The notes below the pieces were generated by a model. The model had not been told where the DNA came from and made no database searches. It worked only from the letters and a program-made list of their open reading frames with translations. From assembly GCF_003334785.1 (NCBI RefSeq), contig NZ_QOWV01000002.1: 64,000 nt of DNA; one strand, written 5' to 3'. The position numbers were made by a program, and so were the translations under genes. Source of the DNA: Escherichia coli (lineage in GTDB: Bacteria > Pseudomonadota > Gammaproteobacteria > Enterobacterales > Enterobacteriaceae). Positions 51 to 50,908 of the stretch are shown here, in pieces. Position 1 is the first letter of the stretch, and each line of letters starts with the position of its first letter.

Positions 51-59
51 GCTCTTTCC

Positions 60-3854: not shown

Positions 3855-3994
3855 TCTGCATCCCTGTAATTTTATCCAGTTGAATGCAGATGCTACCAGT
3901 ATTTATGCGGGTTAGAGAGAGACAAAATCGCAAGAAAACAACTTTAGGAATTTATAAAGAAAAGGCGCTGTCGATGCAGCGCCTTGAAGGGGGA

Positions 3995-6028: not shown

Positions 6029-6159
6029 AGTAGGCATTACTTCTTAATAGTGAAAAGGGGTTAGATAGTACCAAATGGGAAAATGTTAAGTAAGTACTTC
6101 TCTATATTCTTCAGGTAAACTATCAGCTGATGGTTTATCTATACAAAAAAGGAGTCGGG

Positions 6160-31234: not shown

Positions 31235-31261
31235 AAAAAATAAGCCCGTGTAAGGGAGATT
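31235..31261. repeat. attL core (27 bp)
   Basis: AAAAAATAAGCCCGTGTAAGGGAGATT, identical to 61589-61615. Confidence 0.85.
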
Positions 31262-31340
31262 TAGGGTGTCACCAGTAGGGGCTTTCAACGGTACAATGCG
31301 GGTTTGAGCGGCATAAATTACCACTGAAAGCCCTTAAACG

Positions 31341-32354: not shown

Positions 32355-32469
32355 CAGAAAACCCTCCGAGTGGTGTGTTTTTTTGCGACTACTAATCGCT
32401 TTTTTCGTGGTGGCTGAAATTTAGCCACCAATAGTAGGCACTTGTGATGAATATATTCACGATGAATTG

Positions 32470-32769
32470 TTAACCAGTCTTTTGACCGGAGTGGGGCGAC
32501 GTTGTTTCGTTTTGCCCAAAGTGTGCGAGAGCGGGCGCAATTTGCCCGGACTCAGGAGCGATCTGATTGGTCATGAACCATAAAGTGTATTTGGTGAATT
32601 GTGGGGTCTGCAGGATGTTCATCATGACATCTGTTGGAGGTGTTGAACGACCACTTTCATAGTAACTCAGCGTGCCATACGGAACCCCTGTTAAATCAGC
32701 AAGTTGTTGTCTGCTCAAATACTCTGATTTTCGCATTAAGACTATCTTCTCGCTTATCGTGTTTGACAT
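32470..32769 (-). CDS. C: P2 immunity repressor C
   Basis: 99 aa, HTH-containing (LSRQQLADLTGVPYGTLSYYESGRSTP); divergent from cox. Confidence 0.85.
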   Translation of the reverse strand: MSNTISEKIVLMRKSEYLSRQQLADLTGVPYGTLSYYESGRSTPPTDVMMNILQTPQFTKYTLWFMTNQIAPESGQIAPALAHFGQNETTSPHSGQKTG

Positions 32770-32883
32770 GGTGTTTAGATCTCAATAGTATTTAGTTTAG
32801 ATGTAGATTGTTTAGTGCTTGGATGTGGGCACTAAAAGGCATTATAAGACATTAAACGCAATTCATGAGGGCTAGAGGACGAC
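32770..32883. promoter_or_regulatory. C/cox divergent promoter-operator switch region
   Basis: Intergenic region between the divergent C and cox genes with direct repeats TTTAGAT at 32774-32780 and 32796-32802 plus further TTTAGT copies. Confidence 0.5.
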
Positions 32884-33030
32884 ATGAGCAAGCAAGTAAC
32901 ACTCATGACTGATGCGATTCCTTATCAGGAGTTCGCAAAACTAATAGGAAAATCGACATGAAGTGGTTTACTGAATTTGGCCACCTGAACAGAGGTGATA
33001 TGCTCACCTCAGAACAACACAGGTGCCATA

Positions 33031-34178
<1,148 letters not shown>

Positions 34179-34398
34179 CTCGGTGGCCAGTTTTTGTTGA
34201 CCACTTCAACAGGAGCGGTTCGTCGGATGATCGATAAAGGAAAGCTGCCTGTAATTGATATGACCGATCCACAATCAGCTTCAGGTCGTGCAGGTGAATA
34301 TTGGGTATACCTTCCGGCATGGAATAACGGACTAAAACTGGCTTATGAAAGCCGCCCTAAAGAGATTCGTGACGGCTGGTTGATGTGGTTAGGTCTCG

Positions 34399-34593
34399 GT
34401 GAACCACGTTAAGGAGAACCGTATGAATGAGCCTCGTTGTATTGCTCAGTTACTGCGTAACGAAAGCCCCAGGGCGATTGACTTCACCATCACCCACGGT
34501 AAGGGGCGTAAGGGAATCATTATCCGCACCAAAAAACAGAGTCCGTTAAAAAAGGCTCTGACCTTTCTGAAAAGCCGGAGGGTATGGAAATGA
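34399..34593 (+). CDS. small hypothetical ORF between cox and B (P2 orf78 position)
   Basis: 64-aa ORF overlapping the cox 3' end and the B start; no independent support. Confidence 0.3.
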   Translation: MNHVKENRMNEPRCIAQLLRNESPRAIDFTITHGKGRKGIIIRTKKQSPLKKALTFLKSRRVWK

Positions 34594-35090
34594 CAGTGAT
34601 GACGCTCAATCTCGTTGAAAAACAGCCAGCAGCTATGCGCCGGATAATTGGTAAGCATCTTGCCGTTCCTCGCTGGCAGGATACATGTGATTATTATAAT
34701 CAGATGATGGAGCGCGAACGGTTAACGGTTTGCTTCCATGCTCAGTTAAAACAGCGTCACGCAACGATGTGTTTTGAAGAAATGAACGACGTCGAACGTG
34801 AACGACTGGTATGTGCAATTGATGAATTGCGTGGGGCATTCTCAAAACGCCGTCAGGTTGGCGCAAGTGAGTATGCATATATTAGTTTTTTAACAGTCAG
34901 TCAGCGTCGTACTTTATTTATGCATGCCGGATTGACTGAAAAAGAATTCAACCAGCCATACTGGCGAATTAATGAAGAATCATGTTACTGGCGTGATGCT
35001 TTATTCCGTGCATTACGTGAATTATTCAGCCTGTTTGAGTATGCACCGACAATTCTGACGTCGGTAAAACCAGAGCAATATCTGCATTAA
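34584..35090 (+). CDS. B: P2 replication gene B protein (helicase-loader-like)
   Basis: ~166 aa ORF at the position of P2 B between cox and A. Confidence 0.75.
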   Translation: MEMTVMTLNLVEKQPAAMRRIIGKHLAVPRWQDTCDYYNQMMERERLTVCFHAQLKQRHATMCFEEMNDVERERLVCAIDELRGAFSKRRQVGASEYAYISFLTVSQRRTLFMHAGLTEKEFNQPYWRINEESCYWRDALFRALRELFSLFEYAPTILTSVKPEQYLH

Positions 35091-35153
35091 GTAATTAACC
35101 AGAGTTTTTAACGCACTTAATCGTGCGGGGCTTCTTTTTGCCTGGAGAAAGTC

Positions 35154-35378
35154 ATGCATACAGTTTCTGAAAATCAGTGCGGTAAATTCGCATTACTGCT
35201 GCAACAGGCCAGAACCGAAGCACAGGCCGACGCTGCGACGCGCTTTTCTTCTCATCTTGACGCCATGATTCGCCACATCACAAAGGCGGAGTTATCCCGA
35301 GTGGAGATAGTCGAGCTGCTCAGTCAGGAGTCGGAAAAATTTCACAATATCGGATTGTCTCGCGGGGAGGTGCTTTGA
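35154..35378 (+). CDS. hypothetical early protein (P2 orf80 position)
   Basis: 74-aa ORF in the early operon. Confidence 0.5.
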
Positions 35379-35680
35379 TGTCCTGTTCTCATTCAGTTGT
35401 ATTACTGAATAACGCCTTAAAAATCGCCGTTATGGAAAATGGCGATTTGTCTCTTATTCAACTTTGTCTTGATAAAGAAAAACGCGACATCACTGAATCT
35501 GTTATCGCGATTTATCAGAATGAATTAAACCTCCTGTCTGATGTGGTCAATTTACTTGTTAAACGCGCTGTATTCCACAAGCAAATTTCCTCCGTGGATG
35601 AACTGACAAAATTAACGACAGAACTTGCCAGTTATTGCGCTGATGTATCCAGGAAACTTAACGATAAAAGGAGCTGGTAA
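35375..35680 (+). CDS. hypothetical early protein (P2 orf81 position)
   Basis: 101-aa ORF, start overlaps the previous stop. Confidence 0.5.
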
Positions 35681-35904
35681 TGCCGGACAACGTAGATTTT
35701 ATTCAGGAACAACAGGCTGAATTACTGGAGCGCCAGATTAACGCGGCAAGGGTAAAACATTGCGGTGCTTCTGCGCTGGTTTGCGAAGAGTGTGACGCGC
35801 CAATACCTGCTGCCCGTCGTGCGGCTTACCCGTCAGCCACGCGTTGTGTTTCCTGTCAGTCAGTCTTTGAAGCAAAAAACAAACATTACCGGAGAACGGC
35901 ATGA
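35680..35904 (+). CDS. DksA/TraR-family C4 zinc-finger protein (P2 orf82 position)
   Basis: CEECDAPIPAARRAAYPSATRCVSCQ four-Cys motif. Confidence 0.6.
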   Translation: MPDNVDFIQEQQAELLERQINAARVKHCGASALVCEECDAPIPAARRAAYPSATRCVSCQSVFEAKNKHYRRTA

Positions 35905-36176
35905 GTATTCGTATTGAAATTGGCGAACGTTATGTCGTTACCAGTGACAGCTTTCAGTTTATTCTCCACGAGAAAAAGAGAGCGGAAAGCGGTAAAAACG
36001 CCGGTCAGGAATGGCTGGCGGTGGTTGGTTATTACCCGAAATTAAGCCAGCTCGTTTCCGGCCTGATGCATCACGATATTCTGACCGGAAGCGCAAAGTC
36101 TTTTGCTGATTTAAACGCGCAGGTTGAGCAACTCAGCAAGCGTTGTTCAGAGGCTTTTGGCTCATATGGCCGTTAA
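35901..36176 (+). CDS. hypothetical early protein (P2 orf83 position)
   Basis: 91-aa ORF overlapping the A start. Confidence 0.5.
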   Translation: MSIRIEIGERYVVTSDSFQFILHEKKRAESGKNAGQEWLAVVGYYPKLSQLVSGLMHHDILTGSAKSFADLNAQVEQLSKRCSEAFGSYGR

Positions 36177-38451
36177 AGCCTCCGGGCGTTTTGTCCCTCC
36201 GTCAGCATTTGCTGCAGGCACCGGTAAGGCGTTTACCGGTGCTTATGCATGGAACGCGCCACGCGAGGCTGTCGGGCGCGAAAGACCCCTTACACGTGAC
36301 GAGATGCGTCAGGTGCAAGGTGTTTTATCCACGATTAACCGCCTGCCTTACTTTTTGCGCTCGCTGTTTACGTCACGCTATGACTACATCCGGCGCAATA
36401 AAAGCCCGGTGCACGGGTTTTATTTCCTCACATCCACTTTTCAGCGTCGTTTATGGCCGCGCATTGAGCGTGTGAATCAGCGCCATGAAATGAACACCGA
36501 CGCGTCGAAGCTGTTTCTGGCTGAGCGTGACCACTATGCGCGCCTGCCGGGAATGAATGACAAGGAGCTGAAAAAGTTTGCCGCCCGTATCTCATCGCAG
36601 CTTTTCATGATGTATGAGGAACTCAGCGATGCCTGGGTGGATGCGCATGGCGAGAAAGAATCGCTGTTTACGGATGAGGCGCAGGCTCACCTCTATGGTC
36701 ATGTTGCTGGCGCTGCACGTGCTTTCAATATTTCCCCGCTTTACTGGAAAAAATACCGTAAAGGACAGATGACCACGAGGCAGGCATATTCTGCAATTGC
36801 CCGTCTGTTTAACGATGAGTGGTGGACTCATCAGCTTAAAGGCCAGCGTATGCGCTGGCATGAAGCGTTACTGATAGCTGTCGGGGAGGTCAATAAAGAC
36901 CGTTCTCCTTATGCCAGTAAACACGCCATTCGTGATGTGCGTGCGCGCCGCCAGGCAAATCTGGAATTTCTTAAATCGTGTGACCTTGAAAACAGGGAAA
37001 CCGGCGAGCGCATCGACCTTATCAGTAAGGTGATGGGCAGTATTTCTAATCCTGAAATTCGCCGGATGGAGCTGATGAACACCATTGCCGGTATTGAGCG
37101 TTACGCCGCCGCAGAGGGTGATGTGGGGATGTTTATCACGCTGACCGCGCCGTCAAAGTATCACCCGACACGTCAGGTCAGAAAAGGCGAAAGTAAAACC
37201 GTTCAGCTAAATTACGGCTGGAACGATGAGGCATTTAATCCAAAGGATGCGCAGCGTTATCTCTGCCGTATCTGGAGCCTGATGCGCACGGCATTCAAGG
37301 ATAATGACTTACAGGTCTACGGTTTGCGTGTCGTCGAGCCACACCACGACGGAACGCCGCACTGGCATATGATGCTTTTTTGTAATCCACGCCAGCGTAA
37401 CCAGATTATTGAAATCATGCGTCGCTACGCGCTCAAAGAGGATGGAGACGAAAGAGGAGCTGCGCGAAACCGTTTTCAGGCAAAACACCTTAACCGGGGC
37501 GGTGCTGCGGGGTATATCGCGAAATACATCTCAAAAAACATCGATGGCTATGCACTGGATGGTCAGCTCGATAACGACACCGGCAGGCCGCTGAAAGACA
37601 CAGCCGCGGCTGTTACCGCATGGGCGTCAACGTGGCGCATACCACAATTTAAAACGGTTGGCCTGCCGACAATGGGGGCTTACCGTGAACTACGCAAATT
37701 GCCCCGCGGCGTCAGCATTGCTGATGAGTTTGACGAGCGCGTCGAGGCTGCACGCGCCGCCGCAGACAGTGGTGATTTTGCGCTGTATATCAGCGCGCAG
37801 GGCGGGGCAAATGTCCCGCGCGATTGTCAGACTGTCAGGGTCGCCCGTAGTCCGTCGGATGACGTTAACGAGTACGAGGAAGAAGTCGAGAGAGTGGTCG
37901 GCATTTACGCGCCGCATCTCGGCGCGCGTCATATTCATATCACCAGAACGACGGACTGGCACATTGTGCCGAAAGTTCCGGTCGTTGAGCCTTTGACTTT
38001 AAAAAGCGGCATCGCCGCGCCTCGGAGTCCTGTCAATAACTGTGGAAAACTCACCGGTGGTGATACTTCGTTACCGGCTCCCACACCTTCTGAGCACGCC
38101 GCAGCAGTGCTTAATCTGGTTGATGACGGTGTTATCGAATGGAGTGACCCGGAGGTCGTGAGGGCGCTCAGAGGTGCATTAAAACACGGTCGGAGAACGC
38201 CAAGTCGTCAGCAAAGAAACGGAAGCCCGTTAAAACCACATGAAATTGCACCATCGGCCAGACTGACCCGGTCGGAAAGAATGCAAATTACCCGTATCCG
38301 CGTTGACCTTGCTCAGAACGGTATCAGGCCGCAGCGATGGGAGCTTGAGGCGCTGGCGCGTGGCGCGACCGTAAATTATGACGGGAAAAAATTCACGTAT
38401 CCGGTCGCTGATGAGTGGCCGGGATTCTCAACAGTAATGGAGTGGACATGA
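36166..38451 (+). CDS. A: P2 replication initiation protein A (rolling-circle nickase)
   Basis: 761 aa from ATG 36166, MAVKASGRFVPPSAFAAGTGKAFTGAYAW...; largest early-operon ORF. Confidence 0.9.
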   Translation: MAVKASGRFVPPSAFAAGTGKAFTGAYAWNAPREAVGRERPLTRDEMRQVQGVLSTINRLPYFLRSLFTSRYDYIRRNKSPVHGFYFLTSTFQRRLWPRIERVNQRHEMNTDASKLFLAERDHYARLPGMNDKELKKFAARISSQLFMMYEELSDAWVDAHGEKESLFTDEAQAHLYGHVAGAARAFNISPLYWKKYRKGQMTTRQAYSAIARLFNDEWWTHQLKGQRMRWHEALLIAVGEVNKDRSPYASKHAIRDVRARRQANLEFLKSCDLENRETGERIDLISKVMGSISNPEIRRMELMNTIAGIERYAAAEGDVGMFITLTAPSKYHPTRQVRKGESKTVQLNYGWNDEAFNPKDAQRYLCRIWSLMRTAFKDNDLQVYGLRVVEPHHDGTPHWHMMLFCNPRQRNQIIEIMRRYALKEDGDERGAARNRFQAKHLNRGGAAGYIAKYISKNIDGYALDGQLDNDTGRPLKDTAAAVTAWASTWRIPQFKTVGLPTMGAYRELRKLPRGVSIADEFDERVEAARAAADSGDFALYISAQGGANVPRDCQTVRVARSPSDDVNEYEEEVERVVGIYAPHLGARHIHITRTTDWHIVPKVPVVEPLTLKSGIAAPRSPVNNCGKLTGGDTSLPAPTPSEHAAAVLNLVDDGVIEWSDPEVVRALRGALKHGRRTPSRQQRNGSPLKPHEIAPSARLTRSERMQITRIRVDLAQNGIRPQRWELEALARGATVNYDGKKFTYPVADEWPGFSTVMEWT

Positions 38452-38777
38452 TGGCAAAAATTCACGAGGTAAAGCTGCACGCAAAATATTTCGACCTTGT
38501 ACTGGAAGGAAAGAAACGCGCAGAGTTTCGGAAAAAAGATCGTAATTATGAGCGCGGGGGCACGTTGATTTTGCATGAATGGGTGCAGGGTGTGTTTACG
38601 GGGCGAAAGGTTGAAGCCCGGATAACAGATGTTACTGACCTGTCAGACTGGCTGGAAGATTATGTCTTGCTGCACAGAATACTAGGTGAGATACTGCCGC
38701 TGACTGTCAAGCTGGCAGTATCCTCCACATTTTTTATAAATCTAAGGCGAAGAACGGTGGCAATATATTTGCTTTAA
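38451..38777 (+). CDS. small PUA/ASCH-like protein (P2 orf91 position)
   Basis: MAKIHEVKLHAKYFDLVLEGKKRAEFRKKDRNYERGGTLILHEW...; start overlaps the A stop; C-terminal end uncertain. Confidence 0.5.
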   Translation: MAKIHEVKLHAKYFDLVLEGKKRAEFRKKDRNYERGGTLILHEWVQGVFTGRKVEARITDVTDLSDWLEDYVLLHRILGEILPLTVKLAVSSTFFINLRRRTVAIYLL

Positions 38778-38815
38778 ATTGTAAATAAGCAAATTATTCT
38801 AAGCCACAAATGATA

Positions 38816-39577
38816 TCAATTGAGTATCGATTTTCGTTCGAATATAACCATAACGCCAAGCGTCAAATGTAAGTCATCTATATGTGATTCGTATTCATAT
38901 TGGTCAGCATCAGGAGGTAGTAAATGCTCTGCTGCTGTAAAAACATCAATTGTAACAGATATATCGTCTGGAATTTCTTCATTTAATTCGGATATGTATT
39001 TTTTATATTTGTTTTTTAATTTCCTTATCATGTCTTCCTTATGGTGGATTGTAGTGCAGTAATTTTTTTTAGTTGAATCATTGTATGAATGGAATGAACA
39101 GTTTAATGCTAGGCCAAGACTTGAATTTCCTGTAGGGCCTGTGTGTTTAAAGTATTCAAGATTTCTTCTTATGTCAGAAAATAAAAGACTTTTACAGGGG
39201 GCATTTCCTTTAACTTCTATTGCACATATTGGAATGTCGAAAAATGGTCTGCTGTCCAATATGGCAATATCAATTCTGCCTGATCTTGTTGTGTTTGTGT
39301 TTTTTCTGACAGTTTTTTTTGAGAATGTTTTTTGGGGGTCAGACCGTTTCGATAAAGGAACTGTTGCATTAATGAATTTATTTGTATGGTACTCAAATAT
39401 AACTTTGTAATCACCATGGCGAAAAGATTTTATTTCTAACAACGATAGACCTATAGATACGGTAGCTACATATTCAGTGTTTATTTTTGCACCAGACCTG
39501 AAATCCATTAAATAAGTTGCGTCGGCTGACTTTTTCATTCCATCTTTTACAGCTTTCACAATATCCATGTTATTCAT
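38816..39577 (-). CDS. tin: Tin-like protein (P2 T-even phage exclusion)
   Basis: 253-aa ORF in AT-rich DNA immediately downstream of old on the same strand, the position and size of P2 tin. Confidence 0.7.
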   Translation of the reverse strand: MNNMDIVKAVKDGMKKSADATYLMDFRSGAKINTEYVATVSIGLSLLEIKSFRHGDYKVIFEYHTNKFINATVPLSKRSDPQKTFSKKTVRKNTNTTRSGRIDIAILDSRPFFDIPICAIEVKGNAPCKSLLFSDIRRNLEYFKHTGPTGNSSLGLALNCSFHSYNDSTKKNYCTTIHHKEDMIRKLKNKYKKYISELNEEIPDDISVTIDVFTAAEHLLPPDADQYEYESHIDDLHLTLGVMVIFERKSILN

Positions 39578-39751
39578 ATCAACACCTTTTATATTCCAGA
39601 ATTATAAATCTTAATGATTGATTTGTTTGTGTGTTTAGGTTACTAGATTGACGTACTTATAGCACATTCTGATTTTGAAATCACCATCCTTGGGTAAAGC
39701 ACAGCCTATCACTATTGGTTTAGTACTGTGCTGTAATAGTATCAGATTAAG

Positions 39752-41512
39752 TTAAATCCATTTTATGAAATCTTCCATTTCATCATATTTTTTTATTACT
39801 GCTCTAACATCTTTGCTTTCATCACATAAACAATCTAAAAGACTATCCCATTCAGTTTGTTTTTTACCAAATCCATAAACAGCCTCTATATCACCGGATT
39901 TCCATATATAGATTCCGTTATCTTTCAATTTTTGATGTATTTCATGTATATGCTTTTGTGTTTTTTCATGGTTACATATTTTGATGAAGTCTTTGCTTGA
40001 AATGCTTTTGAATGACTCAAAAGTAGTAACTTTTGTATTTAAACTAAGCTCTCCTGAGTTGATTGATTCAATCAAAGCAGTCAATAGATTATCACATTCA
40101 GTACTAAGTAAGTCTTTATGCTCTGTTAATAGAATATTTGATAAGAAATCACAATCAGCTAGAATCCTTGTTTTTATGCCGATGGCATTGATGATTTGTG
40201 ACATCTTAAATAAACTACCCTTACCGTCAACGGCAACAATGCAGATTTTACTCGGGTTGAGTTCATGTCCGTTAATTTTTTTATAAAGTGCATATAGAAC
40301 GTTTGTCTCTGTTTTCCCTTCAACAAGCAAAACTTCTTCAGAAAATAAAAGGTATGATGAATTAGAAAGCGTGAATGCTGAGTGCAATTGCGGTGATGAA
40401 GATTTATATAATTCTTCGATTTTTTCAGATATAGTCTTCCTTGCTATGGTTCCATTAGAATCCTTACAAACCTGAATCGCATTTGCTGCATGCTTTGCAG
40501 AAAGCATACTGGCTGAGTGAGTTGATATTATAACCTGATACCCTGATTCACTTAATGTGACAAGTGATTCTCTGACAGAATTAATGGCTGAAGGGTGTAA
40601 ATATAACTCAGGTTCATCAATGAAAATCAAAGTGTTTGATTTTTTTGATTCGCTGTTTTCTTTTTTTATTTCGGCCAGGTATTGAATTAATGCCATTTGA
40701 ATGGAACGTTGTGTTCCGTGACCAAATCGGCTGATATCTCTCATTACCGGTTCATCTTCCCGAGACTCAAAAACTTTCAGAGTGCCGGATTTAAATATCT
40801 CATCTAATGTCGGTGTGGGAAAGTGTAACTTTACACTTACGTCGGGAAAAAATTGGTTTACTTTTTTATTTACGCCTGAGTCTATTTTATTAAGGCTTTC
40901 TAATCTGTTCTCACCGTTGTGAGAAAGATATTTACCTATTTCTGATATGTTTTTTGAAAATTTTTCTTCGTGTTCTTGTTTTATTTCAGAAACAATTGCG
41001 GAAAGTATCTTTCCTATTGTGGTCGTGTTTTTGCATTTTGTTGAGTCTTCGACAGCGTCAGACATTGCAGGGATATGAATTGGTTCCGGAAATATATTGG
41101 AGATTGCACCATCTATGCCGCCAGGGTTTTTCTTCCACGTGGTACCGTCATATACATCCAGACTTTTTTTGGCTTTTCCTGTTTCCTTATTAAATTCCTG
41201 TCTTCTTGCAAAGGTAAGAGTCCCGTCAATTATAAACGGAGCTATTTTTTGTTGATTCTCTTCTGTTAACAAAGACAGAGTATCATCTGTTATACCTTGA
41301 ATAACGCCTTCAACGGATACGGGGTGTGTAGGATCGTACACATCTGATTCTGAAATCAAAGAGCCATCTAACAGCCACTTAATTGCTAAGATAATATTTG
41401 ATTTTCCTGCGTTATTATAACCAACTAAAGCAGTGAAGGGGCGCAAAATAGCCGATGTTGACTTACAAGAACGAAAGTTGCTAATTGAAACTGAAGCAAG
41501 ACGTACAGTCAT
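39752..41512 (-). CDS. old: OLD-family nuclease (ABC-type ATPase plus Toprim domain)
   Basis: 586 aa; Walker A GYNNAGKSN, Walker B LIFIDEPELYLHP, C-terminal Toprim-like LLVEGKTE...AVDGKGS...ADCDF; AT-rich. Confidence 0.9.
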   Translation of the reverse strand: MTVRLASVSISNFRSCKSTSAILRPFTALVGYNNAGKSNIILAIKWLLDGSLISESDVYDPTHPVSVEGVIQGITDDTLSLLTEENQQKIAPFIIDGTLTFARRQEFNKETGKAKKSLDVYDGTTWKKNPGGIDGAISNIFPEPIHIPAMSDAVEDSTKCKNTTTIGKILSAIVSEIKQEHEEKFSKNISEIGKYLSHNGENRLESLNKIDSGVNKKVNQFFPDVSVKLHFPTPTLDEIFKSGTLKVFESREDEPVMRDISRFGHGTQRSIQMALIQYLAEIKKENSESKKSNTLIFIDEPELYLHPSAINSVRESLVTLSESGYQVIISTHSASMLSAKHAANAIQVCKDSNGTIARKTISEKIEELYKSSSPQLHSAFTLSNSSYLLFSEEVLLVEGKTETNVLYALYKKINGHELNPSKICIVAVDGKGSLFKMSQIINAIGIKTRILADCDFLSNILLTEHKDLLSTECDNLLTALIESINSGELSLNTKVTTFESFKSISSKDFIKICNHEKTQKHIHEIHQKLKDNGIYIWKSGDIEAVYGFGKKQTEWDSLLDCLCDESKDVRAVIKKYDEMEDFIKWI

Positions 41513-41706
41513 TATTTTTCCTTAAATGTGCTATTTGTATGCAATGAGTTCATGCGAAACGCTTTTTTACATTTTATAGTCGTTGCATTCAAGGGTGCAT
41601 GAGATTGCATTAAGGGAAACTGTGATATGGCTTGGCTTTTGACTGGAAATACTGATGGCTCATTAGTTTTATTAAGGTGCATTAAAACCGCCCCGTGAAG
41701 CGGGCG

Positions 41707-41725
41707 GGCGAGGCGGGGAAAGCAC
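41707..41725. other. cos cohesive-end sequence (19 nt) of the P2-type genome
   Basis: GGCGAGGCGGGGAAAGCAC in the GC-rich non-coding region between old and Q; matches the P2 cohesive end as I recall it. Confidence 0.6.
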
Positions 41726-41894
41726 TGCGCGCTGGCGGTGGTGCTGATTTTGTTTTTTCAGCGTCTGAGCGCGTCGTGAAGGCGCTTAGTCTGCCCGTTG
41801 AGGCGTTGGTGTGTCTGCGGGGTGTTTTGTGCGGTGGTGAGCGTGTGAGGGCGTGATGACGGGGTGTAAAAAAGCCGCCCGCAGGCGGCGATGT

Positions 41895-42929
41895 TCAGCC
41901 GTTGTCTGTGTCCAGTGAGTAGTTTTTAAAGCGGATGACCTCCTGACCGAGCCAGCCGTTTATTTCCCGAATCCTGTCCTGTAACGGGATAAGCTCATTG
42001 CGGACAAAGACCTTTGCCACTTTCTCAATATCACCCAGCGACCCGACGTTCTCCGGCTTGCCGCCCATCAACTGAAAGGGGATGCGGTGCGCGTCCAGCA
42101 GGTCAGCGGCGCTGGCTTTTTTGATATTAAAAAAATCGTCCTTCGTTGCCACTTCACTGAGCGGGATAATTTTAATGCCGTCAGCTTTCCCCTGCGGGGC
42201 ATAGAGAAACAGATTTTTAAAGTTGTTGCGGCCTTTTGACTTCACCATGTTTTCGCGAAGCATTTCGATATCGTTGCGATCCTGCACGGCATCGGTGACG
42301 TACATGATATATCCGGCATGAGCGCCGTTTTCGTAATACTTGCGGCGGAACAGCGTGGCCGACTCATTCAGCCAGGCAGAATTAAGGGCGCTGAGATATT
42401 CCGGCAGGCCGTACAGCTCCTGATTAATATCCGGCTCCAGCAGGTGAAACACGGAGCCGGGCGCGAAGGCTGTCGGCTCGTTGAAGGACGGCACCCACCA
42501 GTAAACATCCTCCTCCACACCACGGCGGGTATATTTTGCCGGTGAGGTTTCCAGTCTGATGACCTTACCGGTGGTGCTGTAACGCTTTTCCAGAAACGCA
42601 TTACCGAACACCAGAAAATCCAGCACAAAGCGGCTGAAATCCTGCTGGGAAAGCCACGGGTGCGGAATAAACGTTGAAGCCAGAATATTACGTTTGACGT
42701 AAATCGGTGAGCTGTGATGCACGGCAGCACGCAGGCTTTTTGCCAGACCGGTAAAGCTGACCGGTGGCTCATACCATCTGCCGTTACTGATGCACTCGAC
42801 GTAATCCAGAATGTCACGGCGGTCGAGTACCGGCACCGGCTCACCAAAGGTGAATGCCTCCATTTTTGGGGCACTGGCAGTCATTTTTTTTGCCGCAGGT
42901 TGCGGTGTTTTCCCTTTTTTCTTGCTCAT
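41895..42929 (-). CDS. Q: portal protein (P2 gpQ)
   Basis: 344-aa ORF at the gpQ position. Confidence 0.85.
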   Translation of the reverse strand: MSKKKGKTPQPAAKKMTASAPKMEAFTFGEPVPVLDRRDILDYVECISNGRWYEPPVSFTGLAKSLRAAVHHSSPIYVKRNILASTFIPHPWLSQQDFSRFVLDFLVFGNAFLEKRYSTTGKVIRLETSPAKYTRRGVEEDVYWWVPSFNEPTAFAPGSVFHLLEPDINQELYGLPEYLSALNSAWLNESATLFRRKYYENGAHAGYIMYVTDAVQDRNDIEMLRENMVKSKGRNNFKNLFLYAPQGKADGIKIIPLSEVATKDDFFNIKKASAADLLDAHRIPFQLMGGKPENVGSLGDIEKVAKVFVRNELIPLQDRIREINGWLGQEVIRFKNYSLDTDNG

Positions 42930-44701
42930 CAGTAAAACTCCAGAATGGTGGATGTCAGCGGGGTGCTGATACCGGCGGTGAGTGGCTCATTTAACAGGGC
43001 GTGCATGGTCGCCCAGGCGAGGTCGGCGTGGCTGGCTTCCTCGCTGCGGCTGGCCTCATAGGTGGCGCTGCGTCCGCTGCTGGTCATGGTCTTGCGGATA
43101 GCCATAAACGAGCTGGTGATGTCGGTGGCGCTGACGTCATATTCCAGACAGCCACGACGGATAACGTCTTTTGCCTTGAGCACCATTGCGGTTTTCATTT
43201 CCGGTGTGTAGCGGATATCGCGCGCGGCGGGATAGAACGAGCGCACGAGCTGGAACACGCCGACACCGAGGCCGGTGGCATCAATACCGATGTATTCGAC
43301 GTTGTATTTTTCGGTGAGTTTGCGGATGGATTCAGCCTGGGTGGCAAAGTCCATGCCTTTCCACTGGTGACGCTCAAGTATTCTGAATTTGCCACCGGCC
43401 ACCACCGGCGGTGCCAGCACCACGCATCCGGCGCTGTCGCCACGGTGTGACGGGTCGTAACCAATCCATACCGGGCGGGAGCCGAACGGATTGGCGGCAA
43501 ACGGCGCATAGTCTTCCCATTCTTCCAGCGTGTCGACCATGCAGCGTTGCAGCTCCTCGAACGGGAACACCGACGCCTTGTCGTCCACAAATTCACACAT
43601 GAACAGGTTTTTAAAATCGTCGGCGCTGTTTTCACGTTTGAGCTGCTCAATGTCGAACAGCGTGCAGCCGCCTTTCAGGGCATCCTCAATGGTGACAATC
43701 TGCCGCCACTGGCCGTCCGCACAGAGAAGCCCACCGGCAAGGGCGTTATGACTGACGTCGATTTCCACGCGTTCAGCGGCGCTGGCGCGTCCCCGGTTAA
43801 ACAGTTCACCCGACCAGAACGGGTAGGCGTCGTGCGCCAGCGTGGACGGGGTGGAGAAATAGGTCGAGCGCAGGTGACTCTGTGAGGCCATACCTGATGC
43901 CACCTTACGCAGTACCTGAAAATTCGGGATCCAGAAAATCTCATCGACGTACAGGTCGCCGTTATGGCTCTGTGCGGTGTTGGAGTTGGTGCCGAGAAAA
44001 ATCAGTTTTGCACCGTTATTGCCCAGGACAATCGGGTCACCGGTCAGGTCAACGTCAACCAGCCGGGCAAAGGCGATGATGTATTCGCGGAACACATACG
44101 CCTGCGTTTTACTGGCCGACAGAAAAATCTGGTTATGACCGGTTTTCAGGGCGCGCAGCAGCGCCTCGCGGGAAAAATAAAACGTCGCGCCAATCTGGCG
44201 GGATTTCAGGATATCGCGGATGCGGTGCTCAAGCCCGGCGCGATACCAGTGCAACTGATATTCGAAAGACTGCTCAAAGAAAATCTGCTCCAGCTTTTCG
44301 ATGGCCTCGTCACTGAAAAAATTCTTTTTCGGTTTGCGGCGTTCGCCTTTGTTGCGGTTAGCGACGTTCGGATTAAGGTCTGCCTCGTTGCCGGTCTGGC
44401 TGTAACGGTTGACCCGTGCCAGTCGTTCAATCTGGCGTCCCAGCAGGTCAATTTCCTTGAAGTCCCCGCCGGTTTTCTGCGGTTTGATGATGAGCTGGGT
44501 CAGCCGCGCTTCCAGACTCATTTCGACACGGCTGATGGGAGCAACGCTGTCCCAGCCGTCGCGCTGTTTCCAGCTCTGCACCGTCGGGCGTTTCATCTGC
44601 AACATGGCGGCAATCTGCGGCACGGAAAACCCCTGCCAGTACAGCAGCGCCGCCTGACGACGCGGGTCGTGTAAAAGAGTGGTGTCTGTGGTGATGGTCA
44701 T
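42929..44701 (-). CDS. P: terminase large (ATPase) subunit (P2 gpP)
   Basis: MTITTDTTLLHDPRRQAALLYWQGFSVPQIAAML..., ~590 aa. Confidence 0.85.
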   Translation of the reverse strand: MTITTDTTLLHDPRRQAALLYWQGFSVPQIAAMLQMKRPTVQSWKQRDGWDSVAPISRVEMSLEARLTQLIIKPQKTGGDFKEIDLLGRQIERLARVNRYSQTGNEADLNPNVANRNKGERRKPKKNFFSDEAIEKLEQIFFEQSFEYQLHWYRAGLEHRIRDILKSRQIGATFYFSREALLRALKTGHNQIFLSASKTQAYVFREYIIAFARLVDVDLTGDPIVLGNNGAKLIFLGTNSNTAQSHNGDLYVDEIFWIPNFQVLRKVASGMASQSHLRSTYFSTPSTLAHDAYPFWSGELFNRGRASAAERVEIDVSHNALAGGLLCADGQWRQIVTIEDALKGGCTLFDIEQLKRENSADDFKNLFMCEFVDDKASVFPFEELQRCMVDTLEEWEDYAPFAANPFGSRPVWIGYDPSHRGDSAGCVVLAPPVVAGGKFRILERHQWKGMDFATQAESIRKLTEKYNVEYIGIDATGLGVGVFQLVRSFYPAARDIRYTPEMKTAMVLKAKDVIRRGCLEYDVSATDITSSFMAIRKTMTSSGRSATYEASRSEEASHADLAWATMHALLNEPLTAGISTPLTSTILEFY

Positions 44702-44874
44702 GAATACCTCGCCGTGATGAATACACGGCAAGGCTACTGAGTCGCGCCCCGCGATTCGCTAAGGTGCTGTTGTGTCAGTGATAAGCCATCCGGGACTGAT
44801 GGCGGAGGATGCGCATCGTCGGGAAACTGATGCCGACATGTGACTCCTCTAATCACTATTCAGGACTCCTGACA

Positions 44875-45729
44875 ATGGCAAAAAAAGTCTCAAAATTCTT
44901 TCGTATCGGCGTTGAGGGTGACACCTGTGACGGGCGTGTCATCAGTGCGCAGGATATTCAGGAAATGGCCGAAACCTTTGACCCGCGAGTCTATGGTTGC
45001 CGCATTAACCTGGAACATCTGCGCGGCATCCTGCCTGACGGTATTTTTAAGCGTTATGGCGATGTGGTCGAACTGAAGGCCGAAAAGATTGACGATGATT
45101 CGGTGCTGAAAGGCAAATGGGCGCTGTTTGCGAAAATCACCCCGACCGATGACCTTATCGCGATGAACAAGGCCGCGCAGAAGGTCTACACCTCAATGGA
45201 AATTCAGCCGAACTTTGCCAATACCGGCAAATGTTATCTGGTGGGTCTGGCCGTCACCGATGACCCGGCAAGCCTCGGCACGGAATACCTGGAATTCTGC
45301 CGCACGGCAAAACACAACCCTCTGAACCGCTTCAAATTAAGCCCTGAAAACCTGATTTCAGTGGCAACGCCTGTTGAGCTGGAATTTGAAGACCTGCCTG
45401 AAACCGTGTTCACCGCCCTGACCGAAAAGGTGAAGTCCATTTTTGGCCGCAAACAGGCCAGCGATGACGCCCGTCTGAATGACGTGCATGAAGCGGTGAC
45501 CGCTGTTGCTGAACATGTGCAGGAAAAACTGAGCGCCACTGAGCAGCGCCTCGCTGAGATGGAAACCGCTTTTTCCGCACTTAAGCAGGATGTGACTGAC
45601 AGGGCGGATGAAACCAGCCAGGCATTCACCCGCCTGAAAAACAGTCTCGACCACACCGAAAGTCTGACCCAGCAGCGCCGCAGCAAGGCCACCGGTGGTG
45701 GCGGTGACGCCCTGATGACGAACTGCTGA
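44875..45729 (+). CDS. O: capsid scaffolding protein (P2 gpO)
   Basis: MAKKVSKFFRIGVEGDTCDGRVISAQDIQEMAETFDPRVYG..., 284 aa, divergent from Q-P. Confidence 0.85.
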   Translation: MAKKVSKFFRIGVEGDTCDGRVISAQDIQEMAETFDPRVYGCRINLEHLRGILPDGIFKRYGDVVELKAEKIDDDSVLKGKWALFAKITPTDDLIAMNKAAQKVYTSMEIQPNFANTGKCYLVGLAVTDDPASLGTEYLEFCRTAKHNPLNRFKLSPENLISVATPVELEFEDLPETVFTALTEKVKSIFGRKQASDDARLNDVHEAVTAVAEHVQEKLSATEQRLAEMETAFSALKQDVTDRADETSQAFTRLKNSLDHTESLTQQRRSKATGGGGDALMTNC

Positions 45730-45787
45730 CCGGCGTCAGTCAGTCCGGGAAAACCTTCACGATTAACCCTTAATTTCAGGAAAAACT

Positions 45788-46861
45788 ATGCGCCAGGAAA
45801 CCCGCTTTAAATTTAATGCCTACCTGTCCCGTGTTGCCGAACTGAACGGCATCGACGCCGGTGATGTGTCGAAAAAATTCACCGTTGAACCGTCGGTCAC
45901 CCAGACCCTGATGAACACCATGCAGGAGTCCTCTGACTTTCTGACCCGCATCAACATTGTGCCGGTCAGCGAAATGAAAGGGGAAAAAATTGGCATCGGT
46001 GTCACCGGCTCCATCGCCAGCACCACCGACACCGCCGGTGGCACCGAGCGTCAGCCGAAGGACTTCTCGAAGCTGGCGTCAAACAAGTACGAATGCGACC
46101 AGATTAACTTCGATTTTTATATCCGCTACAAAACGCTGGACCTGTGGGCGCGTTATCAGGATTTCCAGCTCCGTGTCCGTAACGCCATTATCAAACGCCA
46201 GTCCCTTGATTTAATCATGGCCGGTTTTAACGGCGTGAGGCGTGCCGAAACCTCTGACCGCAGCAGCAATCCGATGCTGCAGGATGTGGCGGTCGGCTGG
46301 CTGCAGAAATACCGCAATGAAGCCCCGGCGCGCGTGATGAGCAAGGTCACTGACGAGGAAGGGCACACCACCTCTGAGGTTATCCGCGTGGGTAAGGGCG
46401 GTGATTATGCCAGCCTTGACGCACTGGTGATGGATGCGACCAACAACCTGATTGAGCCGTGGTATCAGGAAGACCCTGACCTTGTGGTGATTGTGGGACG
46501 TCAGCTACTGGCGGACAAGTATTTTCCCATCGTCAACAAGGAGCAGGACAACAGCGAAATGCTGGCCGCTGACGTCATCATCAGCCAGAAACGCATCGGT
46601 AACCTGCCGGCGGTACGCGTCCCGTACTTCCCGGCGGATGCGATGCTCATCACAAAGCTGGAAAACCTGTCCATCTACTACATGGATGACAGCCATCGCC
46701 GCGTGATTGAGGAAAACCCGAAACTCGACCGCGTGGAGAACTACGAGTCAATGAACATTGATTACGTGGTGGAAGACTACGCCGCCGGTTGTCTGGTGGA
46801 AAAAATTAAGGTCGGTGATTTCTCCACACTGGCTAAAGCGACCGCAGAGCCGGGAGCGTAA
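45788..46861 (+). CDS. N: major capsid protein (P2 gpN)
   Basis: 357-aa ORF following O. Confidence 0.85.
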   Translation: MRQETRFKFNAYLSRVAELNGIDAGDVSKKFTVEPSVTQTLMNTMQESSDFLTRINIVPVSEMKGEKIGIGVTGSIASTTDTAGGTERQPKDFSKLASNKYECDQINFDFYIRYKTLDLWARYQDFQLRVRNAIIKRQSLDLIMAGFNGVRRAETSDRSSNPMLQDVAVGWLQKYRNEAPARVMSKVTDEEGHTTSEVIRVGKGGDYASLDALVMDATNNLIEPWYQEDPDLVVIVGRQLLADKYFPIVNKEQDNSEMLAADVIISQKRIGNLPAVRVPYFPADAMLITKLENLSIYYMDDSHRRVIEENPKLDRVENYESMNIDYVVEDYAAGCLVEKIKVGDFSTLAKATAEPGA

Positions 46862-46864
46862 CCG

Positions 46865-47608
46865 ATGACGAGTCCCGCACAGCGCCACATGATGCGGGTC
46901 TCGGCAGCGATGACCGCGCAGCGGGAAGCCGCCCCGCTGCGACATGCAACTGTCTATGAGCAGATGCTGGTTAAGCTCGCCGCAGACCAGCGCACACTGA
47001 AAGCGATTTATTCAAAAGAGCTGAAGGCCGCGAAAAAACGCGAACTGCTGCCGTTCTGGTTGCCGTGGGTGAACGGCGTGCTGGAGCAGGGCAAAGGTGC
47101 ACAGGATGACATTCTGATGACGGTCATGCTGTGGCGTCTGGATACCGGCGATATTGCCGGTGCGCTGGAGATTGCCCGTTATGCCCTGAAATACGGTCTG
47201 ACCATGCCGGGTAAACACCGCCGCACCCCGCCGTACATGTTCACCGAGGAGGTGGCACTTGCGGCCATGCGCGCCCACGCTGCCGGTGAGTCTGTGGATC
47301 CCCGCCTGCTGACGGACACCCTCGAACTGACCGCCACGGCTGACATGCCTGATGAAGTGCGCGCAAAGCTGCACAAAATCACCGGTCTGTTTCTGCGTGA
47401 CGCTGGTGATGCCGCCGGTGCGCTGGCTCACCTGCAGCGTGCGACACAGCTCGACTGTCAGGCAGGCGTCAAAAAAGAGATTGAACGACTGGAGCGGGAG
47501 CTGAAACCGAAGCCGGAGCCGCAACCAAAAGCGGCCACCCGCGCCCCGCGTAAGACCCGGAGCGTGACACCGGCAAAACGTGGACGCCCGAAAAAGAAAG
47601 CCAGTTAA
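46865..47608 (+). CDS. M: terminase small/endonuclease subunit (P2 gpM)
   Basis: 247-aa ORF with very basic C-terminal tail (KPKPEPQPKAATRAPRKTRSVTPAKRGRPKKKAS). Confidence 0.8.
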   Translation: MTSPAQRHMMRVSAAMTAQREAAPLRHATVYEQMLVKLAADQRTLKAIYSKELKAAKKRELLPFWLPWVNGVLEQGKGAQDDILMTVMLWRLDTGDIAGALEIARYALKYGLTMPGKHRRTPPYMFTEEVALAAMRAHAAGESVDPRLLTDTLELTATADMPDEVRAKLHKITGLFLRDAGDAAGALAHLQRATQLDCQAGVKKEIERLERELKPKPEPQPKAATRAPRKTRSVTPAKRGRPKKKAS

Positions 47609-47647
47609 CAACCGAATGCGCCCCGCGCCAGGGCGGCACGCCGGTCA

Positions 47648-48076
47648 GTGAGGGTGACCGGACTTATTGAATCGCTGTCACCGTCAGGGCGTCGGCGACT
47701 GAGCGCCGAACTGGCGAAACGTCTGCGGCAGAGTCAGCAGCGCCGGGTGATGGCACAGAAAGCCCCGGACGGCACACCCTACGCACCACGCCAGCAGCAG
47801 AGCGCCAGAAAAAAGACCGATCGCGTTAAGCGAAAAATGTTTGCGAAACTTATCACCAGTCGTTTTTTGCATATCCGCGCCAGCCCGGAACAGGCATCAA
47901 TGGAGTTTTTCGGCGGGAAGTCACCGAAAATCGCCAGCGTGCATCAGTTCGGTCTGTCGGAAGAAACCCGGAAAGACGGTAAGAAAATTGATTATCCGGC
48001 GCGTCCTCTGCTCGGCTTTACCGGTGAGGATGTGCAGATGATTGAAGAGATTATCCTGGCTCACCTTGAGCGTTAG
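47648..48076 (+). CDS. late morphogenesis protein; by position gpL (head completion), but the C-terminal HQFG...PARP motif resembles the gpS/virion-morphogenesis family
   Basis: 142-aa ORF starting at GTG 47648 with no ATG in frame upstream; identity as L versus S cannot be settled without a search. Confidence 0.55.
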   Translation: MRVTGLIESLSPSGRRRLSAELAKRLRQSQQRRVMAQKAPDGTPYAPRQQQSARKKTDRVKRKMFAKLITSRFLHIRASPEQASMEFFGGKSPKIASVHQFGLSEETRKDGKKIDYPARPLLGFTGEDVQMIEEIILAHLER

Positions 48077-48106
48077 TTTTATCCAGGCAGAGGCTGATGC
48101 GCAATT

Positions 48107-48140
48107 AAACATTGAGCGCCGTGCTGGTCGCTCAATGTTT
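48107..48140. other. perfect 12-bp inverted repeat (hairpin) at the junction between GC-rich late genes and the AT-rich cargo
   Basis: AAACATTGAGCG - 10 nt - CGCTCAATGTTT; no adjacent T-tract on either strand. Confidence 0.5.
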
Positions 48141-48146
48141 AGAGGT

Positions 48147-48932
48147 TTATGAGTGGTTTTTATTTGATGCTTTGTATTCTAAAACCTTCTTATTGGCGTA
48201 AAAGAATTTTGTATATGACAGGAATATAAGCAGACCTGAAATGAAATAGATTAGGGATATTATTAATAATGTTTTTCTGTGGCTGTTATTATCTTTAATC
48301 TCCTGACTTAACCATTCGGAGTCCTCCTCGTTTAGCTGTAAGAGCTTATTGCAGGCGATCTCAGGAAGTGTGTCTTTTATAAATACGTTTTGCAGACTCT
48401 TGCAATCGGCAAGGCTATAAGTTTTATTAAATTCAACTGTTTTATTTTTGAAGGATAAAAGAACTTTGTCACTATAAACATAGTACATCATATTTTTATA
48501 TGGTATACCTATGGCATCCCTTACTATAGCGGATTGTTCATTGTGTATGTAACATGCGAAGATAATATAAAGAATTCCGGCCAGGACTGCACTCATTGTT
48601 TTTGTGATGCATGGCGGTTCTGTTATGTCTCCCCAGAAGCGAGTAAGGAAAAAATCCGATGTTTTTAGTTTTCCATCAATCAGCCCCTGCTGTATCATTC
48701 TCACATCTTCGATGCCTGATACATTGATTCCGTTAAGTGTTTTAAATAGTTGAATATCGCGCCACTCGCGGTCCAGTCTTTTTAATTTTTTGTCTGAATA
48801 TCCAAATTTGAAATAATGTGCAATAAGCCTCATAAGGTTACTTTTACCAAAGCTAAAAAATGCTAATACTGCAAAGACCAAAAGATACAAAACGATTAGC
48901 TCCCACACATTAGTCACATTATAGCTGACCAT
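48147..48932 (-). CDS. hypothetical membrane protein (261 aa, 3 predicted transmembrane helices), foreign AT-rich cargo of unknown function
   Basis: ORF with strong Shine-Dalgarno (AAGGAGAG 7 nt before ATG); hydrophobic segments WELIVLYLLVFAVLAFFSF, MSAVLAGILYIIFACYI, KTLLIISLIYFISGLLIFLSY; AT-rich codon usage unlike the flanking phage genes. Confidence 0.6.
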   Translation of the reverse strand: MVSYNVTNVWELIVLYLLVFAVLAFFSFGKSNLMRLIAHYFKFGYSDKKLKRLDREWRDIQLFKTLNGINVSGIEDVRMIQQGLIDGKLKTSDFFLTRFWGDITEPPCITKTMSAVLAGILYIIFACYIHNEQSAIVRDAIGIPYKNMMYYVYSDKVLLSFKNKTVEFNKTYSLADCKSLQNVFIKDTLPEIACNKLLQLNEEDSEWLSQEIKDNNSHRKTLLIISLIYFISGLLIFLSYTKFFYANKKVLEYKASNKNHS

Positions 48933-49015
48933 TACGCTCTCCTTGAATGTTGTCTGGTGGTTCTACAAATGAATCCAGATAGCATAACTTTTATATATTG
49001 TGCAATCTCACATGC

Positions 49016-49651
49016 ATGAACACTCTCGCAAATATTCAGGAACTCGCGCGCGCACTGCGCAACATGATCCGCACCGGCATTATCGTTGAAACCGACCTTA
49101 ACGCCGGTCGCTGCCGTGTGCAGACCGGCGGCATGTGCACCGACTGGCTTCAGTGGCTGACCCATCGCGCCGGACGTTCGCGCACATGGTGGGCACCTTC
49201 CGTGGGGGAACAGGTGCTGATTCTGGCCGTGGGCGGTGAACTCGACACGGCGTTCGTTCTGCCGGGGATTTATTCCGGCGATAACCCTGCGCCGTCTGCG
49301 TCGGCTGATGCCCTGCATATCCGTTTCCCTGACGGGGCGGTGATTGAGTATGAGCCCGAAACCAGTGCACTCACGGTAAGCGGAATTAAAACGGCCAGCG
49401 TGACGGCTTCTGATTCTGTTACTGCCACGGTGCCGGTGGTCACGGTGAAAGCATCAACCCGCGTCACCCTGGACACACCAGAGGTGGTCTGCACCAACAG
49501 GCTGATTACCGGCACGCTGGAAGTGCAGAAGGGCGGGACGATGCGCGGCAACATTGAACACACCGGCGGTGAACTCTCATCAAACGGTAAGGTACTGCAT
49601 ACCCATAAACACCCCGGCGACAGCGGCGGCACAACCGGGAGTCCTCTATGA
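49016..49651 (+). CDS. V: baseplate spike/assembly protein (P2 gpV)
   Basis: MNTLANIQELARALRNMIRTGIIVETDLNAGRCRVQTGG..., 211 aa. Confidence 0.85.
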   Translation: MNTLANIQELARALRNMIRTGIIVETDLNAGRCRVQTGGMCTDWLQWLTHRAGRSRTWWAPSVGEQVLILAVGGELDTAFVLPGIYSGDNPAPSASADALHIRFPDGAVIEYEPETSALTVSGIKTASVTASDSVTATVPVVTVKASTRVTLDTPEVVCTNRLITGTLEVQKGGTMRGNIEHTGGELSSNGKVLHTHKHPGDSGGTTGSPL

Positions 49652-49995
49652 CAGCGCGTTATCTCGGAATGAATCGCAGTGATGGCCTGACTGTCACTGA
49701 CCTTGAGCATATCAGCCAGAGTATCGGCGATATCCTGCGCACACCGGTCGGCTCACGGGTGATGCGTCGTGATTACGGCTCGTTGCTGGCGTCAATGATT
49801 GACCAGCCGCAGACTCCGGCGCTTGAGTTGCAGATTAAGGTCGCCTGTTACATGGCAGTGCTGAAATGGGAACCCCGCGTCACCCTGTCATCCGTCACCA
49901 CGGCGCGCAGTTTTGACGGGCGAATGACGGTCACGTTAACCGGTCAGCACAACGACACCGGCCAGCCACTTTCGTTAACCATCCCTGTGAGTTGA
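49648..49995 (+). CDS. W: baseplate wedge protein (P2 gpW, GPW/gp25 family)
   Basis: 115 aa, overlaps the V stop. Confidence 0.85.
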   Translation: MTARYLGMNRSDGLTVTDLEHISQSIGDILRTPVGSRVMRRDYGSLLASMIDQPQTPALELQIKVACYMAVLKWEPRVTLSSVTTARSFDGRMTVTLTGQHNDTGQPLSLTIPVS

Positions 49996-49999
49996 AACC

Positions 50000-50908
50000 A
50001 TGCCGATTATCGACCTGAACCAGCTACCCGCACCGGATGTGGTCGAGGAGCTGGACTTTGAAACCATTCTTGCCGAACGCAAGGCGACACTGATTTCCCT
50101 TTACCCGGAAGACCAGCAGGAGGCGGTCGCCCGTACCCTGACGCTGGAATCCGAACCTCTCGTCAAACTGCTGGAGGAAAATGCTTATCGTGAGCTTATC
50201 TGGCGTCAGCGTGTGAATGAGGCCGCACGGGCGGTAATGCTGGCCTGTGCCGCCGGTAATGACCTTGATGTGATTGGTGCCAATTACAACACCACGCGCC
50301 TGATTATCACCCCGGCAGATGATTCGACCCTCCCGCCGACACCGGCAGTGATGGAATCTGACACCGATTATCGTCTGCGTATTCAGCAGGCGTTTGAGGG
50401 CTTAAGCGTCGCCGGGTCGGTGGGTGCCTATCAGTATCATGGTCGCAGTGCCGACGGGCGTGTCGCAGATATCTCTGTCACCAGTCCGTCTCCGGCCTGC
50501 GTCACTATCTCCGTGCTGTCACGTGAAAATAACGGTGTGGCATCCGAAGACCTGCTGGCGGTGGTGCGTAACGCCCTTAATGGCGAGGACGTCAGGCCGG
50601 TGGCCGACCGCGTGACCGTGCAGTCTGCCGCCATTGTTGAATACCAGATAAACGCCACGCTTTACCTTTACCCTGGTCCCGAAAGCGAACCCATCCGCGC
50701 CGCCGCCGTGAAAAAACTGGAAGCGTATATCACGGCACAGCACCGGCTGGGGCGTGACATCCGTCTGTCTGCCATTTATGCCGCTTTGCATGTGGAAGGC
50801 GTGCAGCGTGTCGAGCTGGCCGCACCACTGGCCGACATTGTGCTCAACAGTACGCAGGCGTCTTTCTGCACCGAATACAGCGTCGTGACCGGAGGCTCGG
50901 ATGAGTGA
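50000..50908 (+). CDS. J: baseplate protein (P2 gpJ)
   Basis: 302-aa ORF after W. Confidence 0.85.
   Translation: MPIIDLNQLPAPDVVEELDFETILAERKATLISLYPEDQQEAVARTLTLESEPLVKLLEENAYRELIWRQRVNEAARAVMLACAAGNDLDVIGANYNTTRLIITPADDSTLPPTPAVMESDTDYRLRIQQAFEGLSVAGSVGAYQYHGRSADGRVADISVTSPSPACVTISVLSRENNGVASEDLLAVVRNALNGEDVRPVADRVTVQSAAIVEYQINATLYLYPGPESEPIRAAAVKKLEAYITAQHRLGRDIRLSAIYAALHVEGVQRVELAAPLADIVLNSTQASFCTEYSVVTGGSDE

Follow-up and report, generated by a model that had tools for sequence, protein, structure and literature searches.

The 64-kb stretch of DNA analyzed here (referred to as the window) almost certainly contains an authentic P2-type (Peduovirus) prophage cos, which by its sequence is intact and appears to be latent within an integrated, defective element. 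The 19-nt cohesive-end sequence GGCGAGGCGGGGAAAGCAC is found at positions 41707-41725 on the plus strand, where the sequence-only reading had placed it, and it is the sole copy in the window even when up to three mismatches are allowed. That reading had proposed a comparison with the P2 cos, and the 19-mer proved identical at 19 of 19 positions to both cosL (1-19) and cosR (33575-33593) in the annotation of P2 (AF063097). The site lies in non-coding DNA between old and the portal gene, as had also been noted: the interval 41513-41894 corresponds exactly to the space that separates the old start codon (39752..41512, minus strand) from the Q stop codon (41895..42929, minus strand). This is the position of a P2-type cos, between the variable cargo that follows gene A and the Q terminator and stop codon. 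The elements of this region are as follows:

38816-39577, minus strand: tin, 99.2% identical to P2 Tin
39752-41512, minus strand: old, 586/586 amino acids identical to P2 Old
41513..41677, minus strand: AT-rich old-proximal leader/promoter region, identical to P2 33381-33545 bar one substitution
41678..41732, plus strand: 55-bp cos core common to P2-type phages and P4 satellites (29 + 19 + 7 bp)
41707..41725, plus strand: cosN, the 19-nt cohesive-end sequence GGCGAGGCGGGGAAAGCAC, identical to annotated P2 cosL/cosR
41726..41867, plus strand: GC-rich flank from cos towards Q, with conservation that extends to P2-like phages but not to P4
41868..41889, minus strand: tQ, rho-independent terminator of the P-Q operon, 22/22 identical to annotated P2 tQ
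41895-42929, minus strand: Q, portal, tblastn match over 343/344 amino acids, 99.4%, no stops
42929-44701, minus strand: P, large terminase ATPase, tblastn match over 590/590 amino acids, 99.7%, no stops
44875..47608, plus strand: O (scaffold), N (major capsid), and M, full-length matches at 98.4-98.9%, no stops
46865-47608, plus strand: M, small terminase subunit, 247/247 amino acids, 98.4%, no stops

Megablast of positions 41400-42000 against phage records returned matches that break at the 19-mer. The left half corresponds to the right end of P2 (33268-33593, 99.7% identity), which is annotated with old, the old-tin transcript starts, and cosR/the right cohesive end, and the right half corresponds to the end of the portal gene in many Peduovirus genomes. 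The P2 junction was circularized by fusing both ends of the genome through one copy of the 19-mer and was then aligned to the window, where the old/cos/Q junction matched 39132-47657 as one block of 8,526 columns with 98.5% identity. The neighbors and their orientation are those of P2 (AF063097/NC_001895), with old-tin on one side and tQ, Q, and P on the other; unlike the ends of P2 in the virion, the copy in the window lies inside a defective prophage that is integrated.

Collinearity of the entire region with the circularized P2 junction, at this identity over 8.5 kb, excludes a chance match, and dinucleotide-preserving shuffles gave a mean of 0.03 matches to the 19-mer at up to three mismatches. 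It is thus exceedingly improbable that the 19-mer, an exact copy of the annotated P2 cos within this block, is a fortuitous GC-rich match, or that the intergenic region is merely a spacer for terminators and promoters. The region does carry regulatory elements, namely, tQ, a terminator-like hairpin on the minus strand (41688-41707), and the starts of the old-tin transcript; however, the hairpin is no more stable than shuffled sequence, since folding of 41670-41735 on both strands revealed no stability beyond that of the shuffles (z = -0.2 and +0.3). These regulatory elements coexist with the cos. The hairpin, retrieved in a consensus scan, is formed by CCGCCCGCTTCACGGGGCGG followed by TTTTAAT and lies within the cos core, abutting the nicking site. 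Comparison of pairing in the cos core with that of phage 186 gave at most one compensatory pair, judged by eye, so no structure is proposed for the core.

The core was delimited by aligning the circularized junctions of P2, P4, 186, and six other P2-like phages, and it is composed of TGCATTAAAACCGCCCCGTGAAGCGGGCG, the 19-mer, and TGCGCGC. The conserved cos length is given in the literature as 55 bp (PMC9594776, PMC2231350). Positions 41678-41732 match P2 at 55/55, P4 at 52/55, and 186 at 48/55 positions. As the core and the identical 19-mer are common to P4 (NC_001609), whose cos is cut by the same P2 terminase (PMC9122126, PMC2231350), the site could be thought to derive from a P4-type satellite instead of a P2-type phage. 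Against this, the flanks are P2 genes (old to the left and tQ, Q, and P to the right), the core agrees with P2 more closely than with P4, similarity to P4 stops outside the core, also on the Q side, and none of the P4 genes (alpha primase, sid, delta, psu, epsilon) lies beside cos. The collinearity with P2 refutes a satellite origin, to which we assign practically no probability.

The cos of phage 186 (NC_001317; Eganvirus) presents the same architecture, with a 19-nt end beside the terminator of the portal gene, but its cohesive end (GGCGTGGCGGGGAAAGCAT) matches that of the window at 17/19 positions, and its cos-adjacent cargo differs, consisting of tum and orf97. The cos of phage lambda (cosQ-cosN-cosB) is a functional analogue, a site that terminase recognizes and nicks to produce 5′ cohesive ends. 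The lambda ends are 12 nt long and unrelated in sequence, and lambda packages from concatemers, whereas the P2 system packages from closed monomeric circles (PMC2231350). At the level of sequence, the site in the window belongs to the P2-type (Peduoviridae) cos family in every respect compared.

The sequence flanking the core follows P2 closely on both sides. On the old side, 79/79 positions are identical to P2, counted up to and including cos, and on the Q side 57/60 are identical, with the three substitutions in the first 41 bp past cosN. Two of these three are also found in the phage records P2_T22 and PhiR44_1, while the G at 41752 is not; farther out, before tQ, there are two 1-nt indels with respect to P2. 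The cos-to-Q flank (41726..41867) shows 93-98% identity to many Peduovirus genomes and is presumed to be an additional region of terminase recognition. Extending the flanks of a cos increases the transduction of cosmids by more than 1,000-fold (PMC9594776). The terminator tQ was also found by a terminator scan, with a hairpin of -8.3 kcal/mol.

To the left of the core, the DNA is of a different character. The starts of the old-tin transcript mapped in P2 fall at 41556 and 41558 on the minus strand, within the leader segment (41513..41677) that is missing from P2-like phages with other cargo. Over the 213 bp to the left of cos, the window departs from P2 only by an A>G substitution at 41554, which lies 2-4 nt downstream of these starts. 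A conserved block of ~45 bp, approximately GCCAGAGCTGGCGCGG.TCCAGAGTGGTCATGCAAC, is situated directly left of the core in P4, 186, and most P2-like phages; it is absent from P2 and from the window, where AT-rich old-leader DNA takes its place (~41630-41677). As P2 itself lacks this block, it is evidently dispensable for P2 packaging. The description of the stretch as GC-rich holds for 41678-41894 (62% GC) but not for the whole interval 41513-41894 (50.5%) or for the 165 bp next to old (41513-41677, 35%).

The BLAST similarity of P2-like phages with other cargo to the window begins only at ~41678 and continues rightwards, which places the edge of the variable cargo 29 bp left of the nicking site. 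P2-like phages have a cos-adjacent defense hotspot in which the cargo separating cos from gene A/orf91 varies (Rousset et al. 2022, PMC9122126), and in the window tin and old (38816-41512) occupy the place between orf91 and cos. The cargo is the old-tin pair of reference P2, so the arrangement does not differ from the reference arrangement (PMC9122126), while relatives carry other cargo at the hotspot, such as ParB-N and Dam in strain IAL7250 and ParaMORC3 in PhiR44_1. The suggestion in the sequence-only reading that the element might mobilize a flanking defense locus adds nothing new, as old and tin belong to the P2 genome itself.

An open reading frame of 53 amino acids that runs over cos (41695-41856, plus strand) was rejected as a gene despite a match to phrog_17350. 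It is labeled "hypothetical protein" in several phage records, but it contains stops in 186, P4, and 613R3 and a frameshift in P2, and cleavage at cos would split it. The frame is probably an annotation artefact that has spread into a PHROG family.

The prophage that contains the cos was mapped by BLAST of the whole P2 genome against the window, which gave five collinear blocks. Its extent, the blocks, and the two lesions that interrupt the correspondence with P2 are as follows:

31235..61615, plus strand: whole P2-type prophage, 30.4 kb, from P2-versus-window BLAST and att cores
31235-32961: BLAST block, P2 24356-26082
34206-41725: BLAST block, P2 26074-33593
41707-47657: BLAST block, P2 1-5949
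47652-51337: BLAST block, P2 8943-12629
54804-61615: BLAST block, P2 17572-24382
32959..34208, plus strand: IS3-family element (ISEc52, IS911-like) of 1,250 bp within cox, from the junction compared with P2
47652..47657: junction of a 2,993-bp deletion (P2 5950-8942 lost), from BLAST blocks and tblastn

The prophage ends on both sides in the same 27-bp att core, AAAAAATAAGCCCGTGTAAGGGAGATT (31235-31261 and 61589-61615), and it sits between yegR and the CyaR sRNA gene (the cyaR/yegR site). The distance from cos is 10.5 kb to attL and 19.9 kb to attR. The attL site is just downstream of yegR/yegS. The attR core overlaps the CyaR/RyeE sRNA gene (61592-61677, minus strand, 100.7 bits), which indicates that the prophage is inserted at the cyaR 3′ end and restores this gene. 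Several E. coli genomes match the chromosomal flank at 100.0% identity. The exact prophage was not found among complete RefSeq E. coli genomes, in which the closest counterpart of 40500-48500 has 98.1% identity and retains the L-to-R genes.

Tblastn with the P2 proteome retrieved Q, P, O, N, M, orf30, V, W, J, I, FI, FII, E, T, U, D, ogr, int, C, orf78, B, orf80-83, A, orf91, tin, and old at full length and without stops. The terminase subunits P and M are therefore intact by sequence, as the sequence-only reading had suggested, and the predicted cognate terminase and portal (gpP, gpM, and gpQ) would all be encoded by the element that carries the cos. Cis-acting sites are likewise those of P2, with full identity in the att core, both Int arms (P and P′), the Cox sites, the ori nick region, tQ, the Pe/Pc operators (104/104 nt), and the pO/pP activator site (44765-44795, 31/31). 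The C repressor is also identical to that of P2 (99/99 amino acids). The P2 pF activator site has its left half replaced by variant sequence.

Between the fourth and fifth BLAST blocks (51337-54824), distal H, G, and Z/fun of P2 are replaced by other sequence. This replacement encodes a 378-amino-acid fiber, two oppositely oriented genes for fiber-assembly chaperones, an alternative fiber tip in inverted orientation (53661-54203, minus strand), and a DNA invertase (54225-54824). It is a Mu/P1-style invertible host-range segment.

The prophage is defective, which agrees with the picture of a crippled element that keeps its cos implied by the sequence-only reading. The IS element interrupts cox at codon ~25, and tblastn recovers Cox in two pieces, amino acids 1-25 and 20-91. 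The insertion is flanked by a 3-bp target duplication, ACA (32956-32958 and 34209-34211), and its termini are TGAAGTGG...CCACTTCA. Copies 99.9% identical to this IS occur on many plasmids, one of them annotated as "IS3-like element ISEc52 family transposase," and its OrfA is very similar to that of IS911. The junction of the IS with cox was found in 0/5426 complete E. coli genomes. An apparent IS at the equivalent place in strain 25-06685 was traced to a copy of IS3 that lies between yegR and int, and not in cox. The record annotation describes Cox as "required for prophage excision," and cox is needed both for excision and for the lytic switch. As the IS splits this gene, the prophage is locked in.

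The second lesion, the 2,993-bp deletion, removes L, X, Y, K, lysA, lysB, lysC, R, and codons 1-9 of S. In agreement, tblastn with the P2 proteome found no L, X, Y, K, lysABC, or R in the window, and S aligns only from amino acid 10 onward. With these genes missing and S truncated, completion of virions and lysis are impossible for this prophage, which does not hold the complete set of essential genes of a plaque-forming P2-type prophage, taken here as Q, P, O, N, M, L, X, Y, K, R, S, V, W, J, I, H, G, FI, FII, E, T, U, D, ogr, int, C, cox, B, and A.

What the cos would do can be predicted from P2 itself, in which the favored substrate for packaging is a monomeric circle that is covalently closed (PMC2231350, citing Pruss et al. 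1975 and Bowden & Calendar 1979) and cleavage of the 55-bp cos on such circles yields linear DNA with 19-bp cohesive ends (PMC2231350). The cos is needed in cis, since a P2 prophage in which it had been replaced gave no progeny and cosmids bearing it are packaged (PMC9942202). On a closed circle, terminase (the small subunit gpM and the large ATPase/nuclease gpP) would recognize the ~55-bp core together with the Q-side flank. It would then introduce nicks staggered by 19 nt, with the top strand predicted to be cut at 41706/41707 and the bottom strand at 41725/41726; this placement follows the annotation of the 186 record, where the top strand is cut at the 5′ end and the bottom strand at the 3′ end. 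The linear product would be threaded via the gpQ portal into a gpN/gpO procapsid, and its ends would be GGCGAGGCGGGGAAAGCAC.

At present the site is probably latent, because it is internal to an integrated prophage and is the only cos in the window. An integrated cos might instead be a liability to the host, as it is identical to the natural target of terminase, and we consider it very unlikely that the terminase of a superinfecting P2-type phage, or of a helper activated by P4, cuts the chromosome at 41707-41725. A double-strand break, or an abortive one-ended packaging of adjacent chromosomal DNA, is an outcome to which we would likewise give little credence. The preference of the P2/P4 system for covalently closed monomeric circles (PMC2231350) speaks against such cleavage, as does the need for a second cos to finish packaging, when only one is present in 64 kb.

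Renewed use of the latent cos would instead depend on a series of steps. Excision would have to come first, as the P2 system prefers closed circles, and it would be carried out by the resident Int with Cox provided in trans, giving a circle of 30,354 bp. The Cox would have to come from another phage because the resident cox is broken. Derepression would also be required, and since the resident C repressor and its operators are identical to those of P2, wild-type P2 would itself be repressed as a helper, which would thus have to be a heteroimmune or virulent P2-type phage. P4 epsilon is able to derepress a P2 prophage (PMC9942202). Replication would use the resident A and B, of which gpA acts preferentially in cis. 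The helper would also have to make good the lost head-completion, tail, and lysis functions, namely, L, X, R, S, holin, endolysin, and spanins. The size of the excised element, 30.35 kb, falls inside the range of 28.9-34.8 kb of P2-like phage records, and old and tin, as part of the phage genome, would travel along with it. Both the requirement for excision and rescue by a helper are inferred, and helper rescue under these conditions is plausible.

It is also possible that the cos is a neutral relic, a site in a prophage that has a broken cox and belongs to a non-inducible type, never excised or used and merely not yet deleted. We give this reading an even chance; it contests only the future use of the site and not its identity. 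The IS in cox and the loss of lysis and assembly genes favor it, and so does the fate of related prophages. The far more eroded remnant at the same chromosomal locus in IAL7250, where the portal is frameshifted and most tail genes are lost, keeps the exact 19-mer and the same M-S′ deletion junction (positions 11001-11091 of that locus). The same M-S′ junction is found in a prophage contig of IMG/VR, also a more decayed remnant; two substitutions lie near the shared junction. On the other side, the cis-acting sites for excision and replication are identical to those of P2, five capsid and terminase genes have no stops, and a co-infecting P2-type phage could in principle provide Cox in trans.

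The persistence of the 19-mer in the IAL7250 remnant shows that cos can be carried passively through decay, so that its retention alone is no evidence of use or selection and is probably not meaningful. The shared M-S′ junction suggests that these prophages represent successive stages in the decay of a single lineage at the cyaR/yegR site. The prophage in the window looks like an earlier stage of this series, with a private IS in cox in addition.

The site itself is already well understood and shows no departure from textbook P2 biology. The 55-bp core occurs in 2128/5426 complete E. coli genomes (39%), at 2,899 places, and P2-like capsid/terminase modules are present in 2254/5426; a core so commonplace raises no new question. 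Its value for annotation is that cos gives the origin of P2 map coordinates in the prophage, and the left edge of its core (~41678) marks the right-hand boundary of the published cos-adjacent defense hotspot. Taken with the L-to-S deletion and the IS that splits cox, it shows that the element is a locked-in defective relative of P2, which would still express P2-type Old, Tin, and immunity. That an early decay-stage prophage with capsid, terminase, cos, and old-tin behaves as a helper-dependent, satellite-like element is unlikely; if it did, a heteroimmune or virulent P2-type phage would excise and package it and would spread the old-tin cargo at the helper's own expense.
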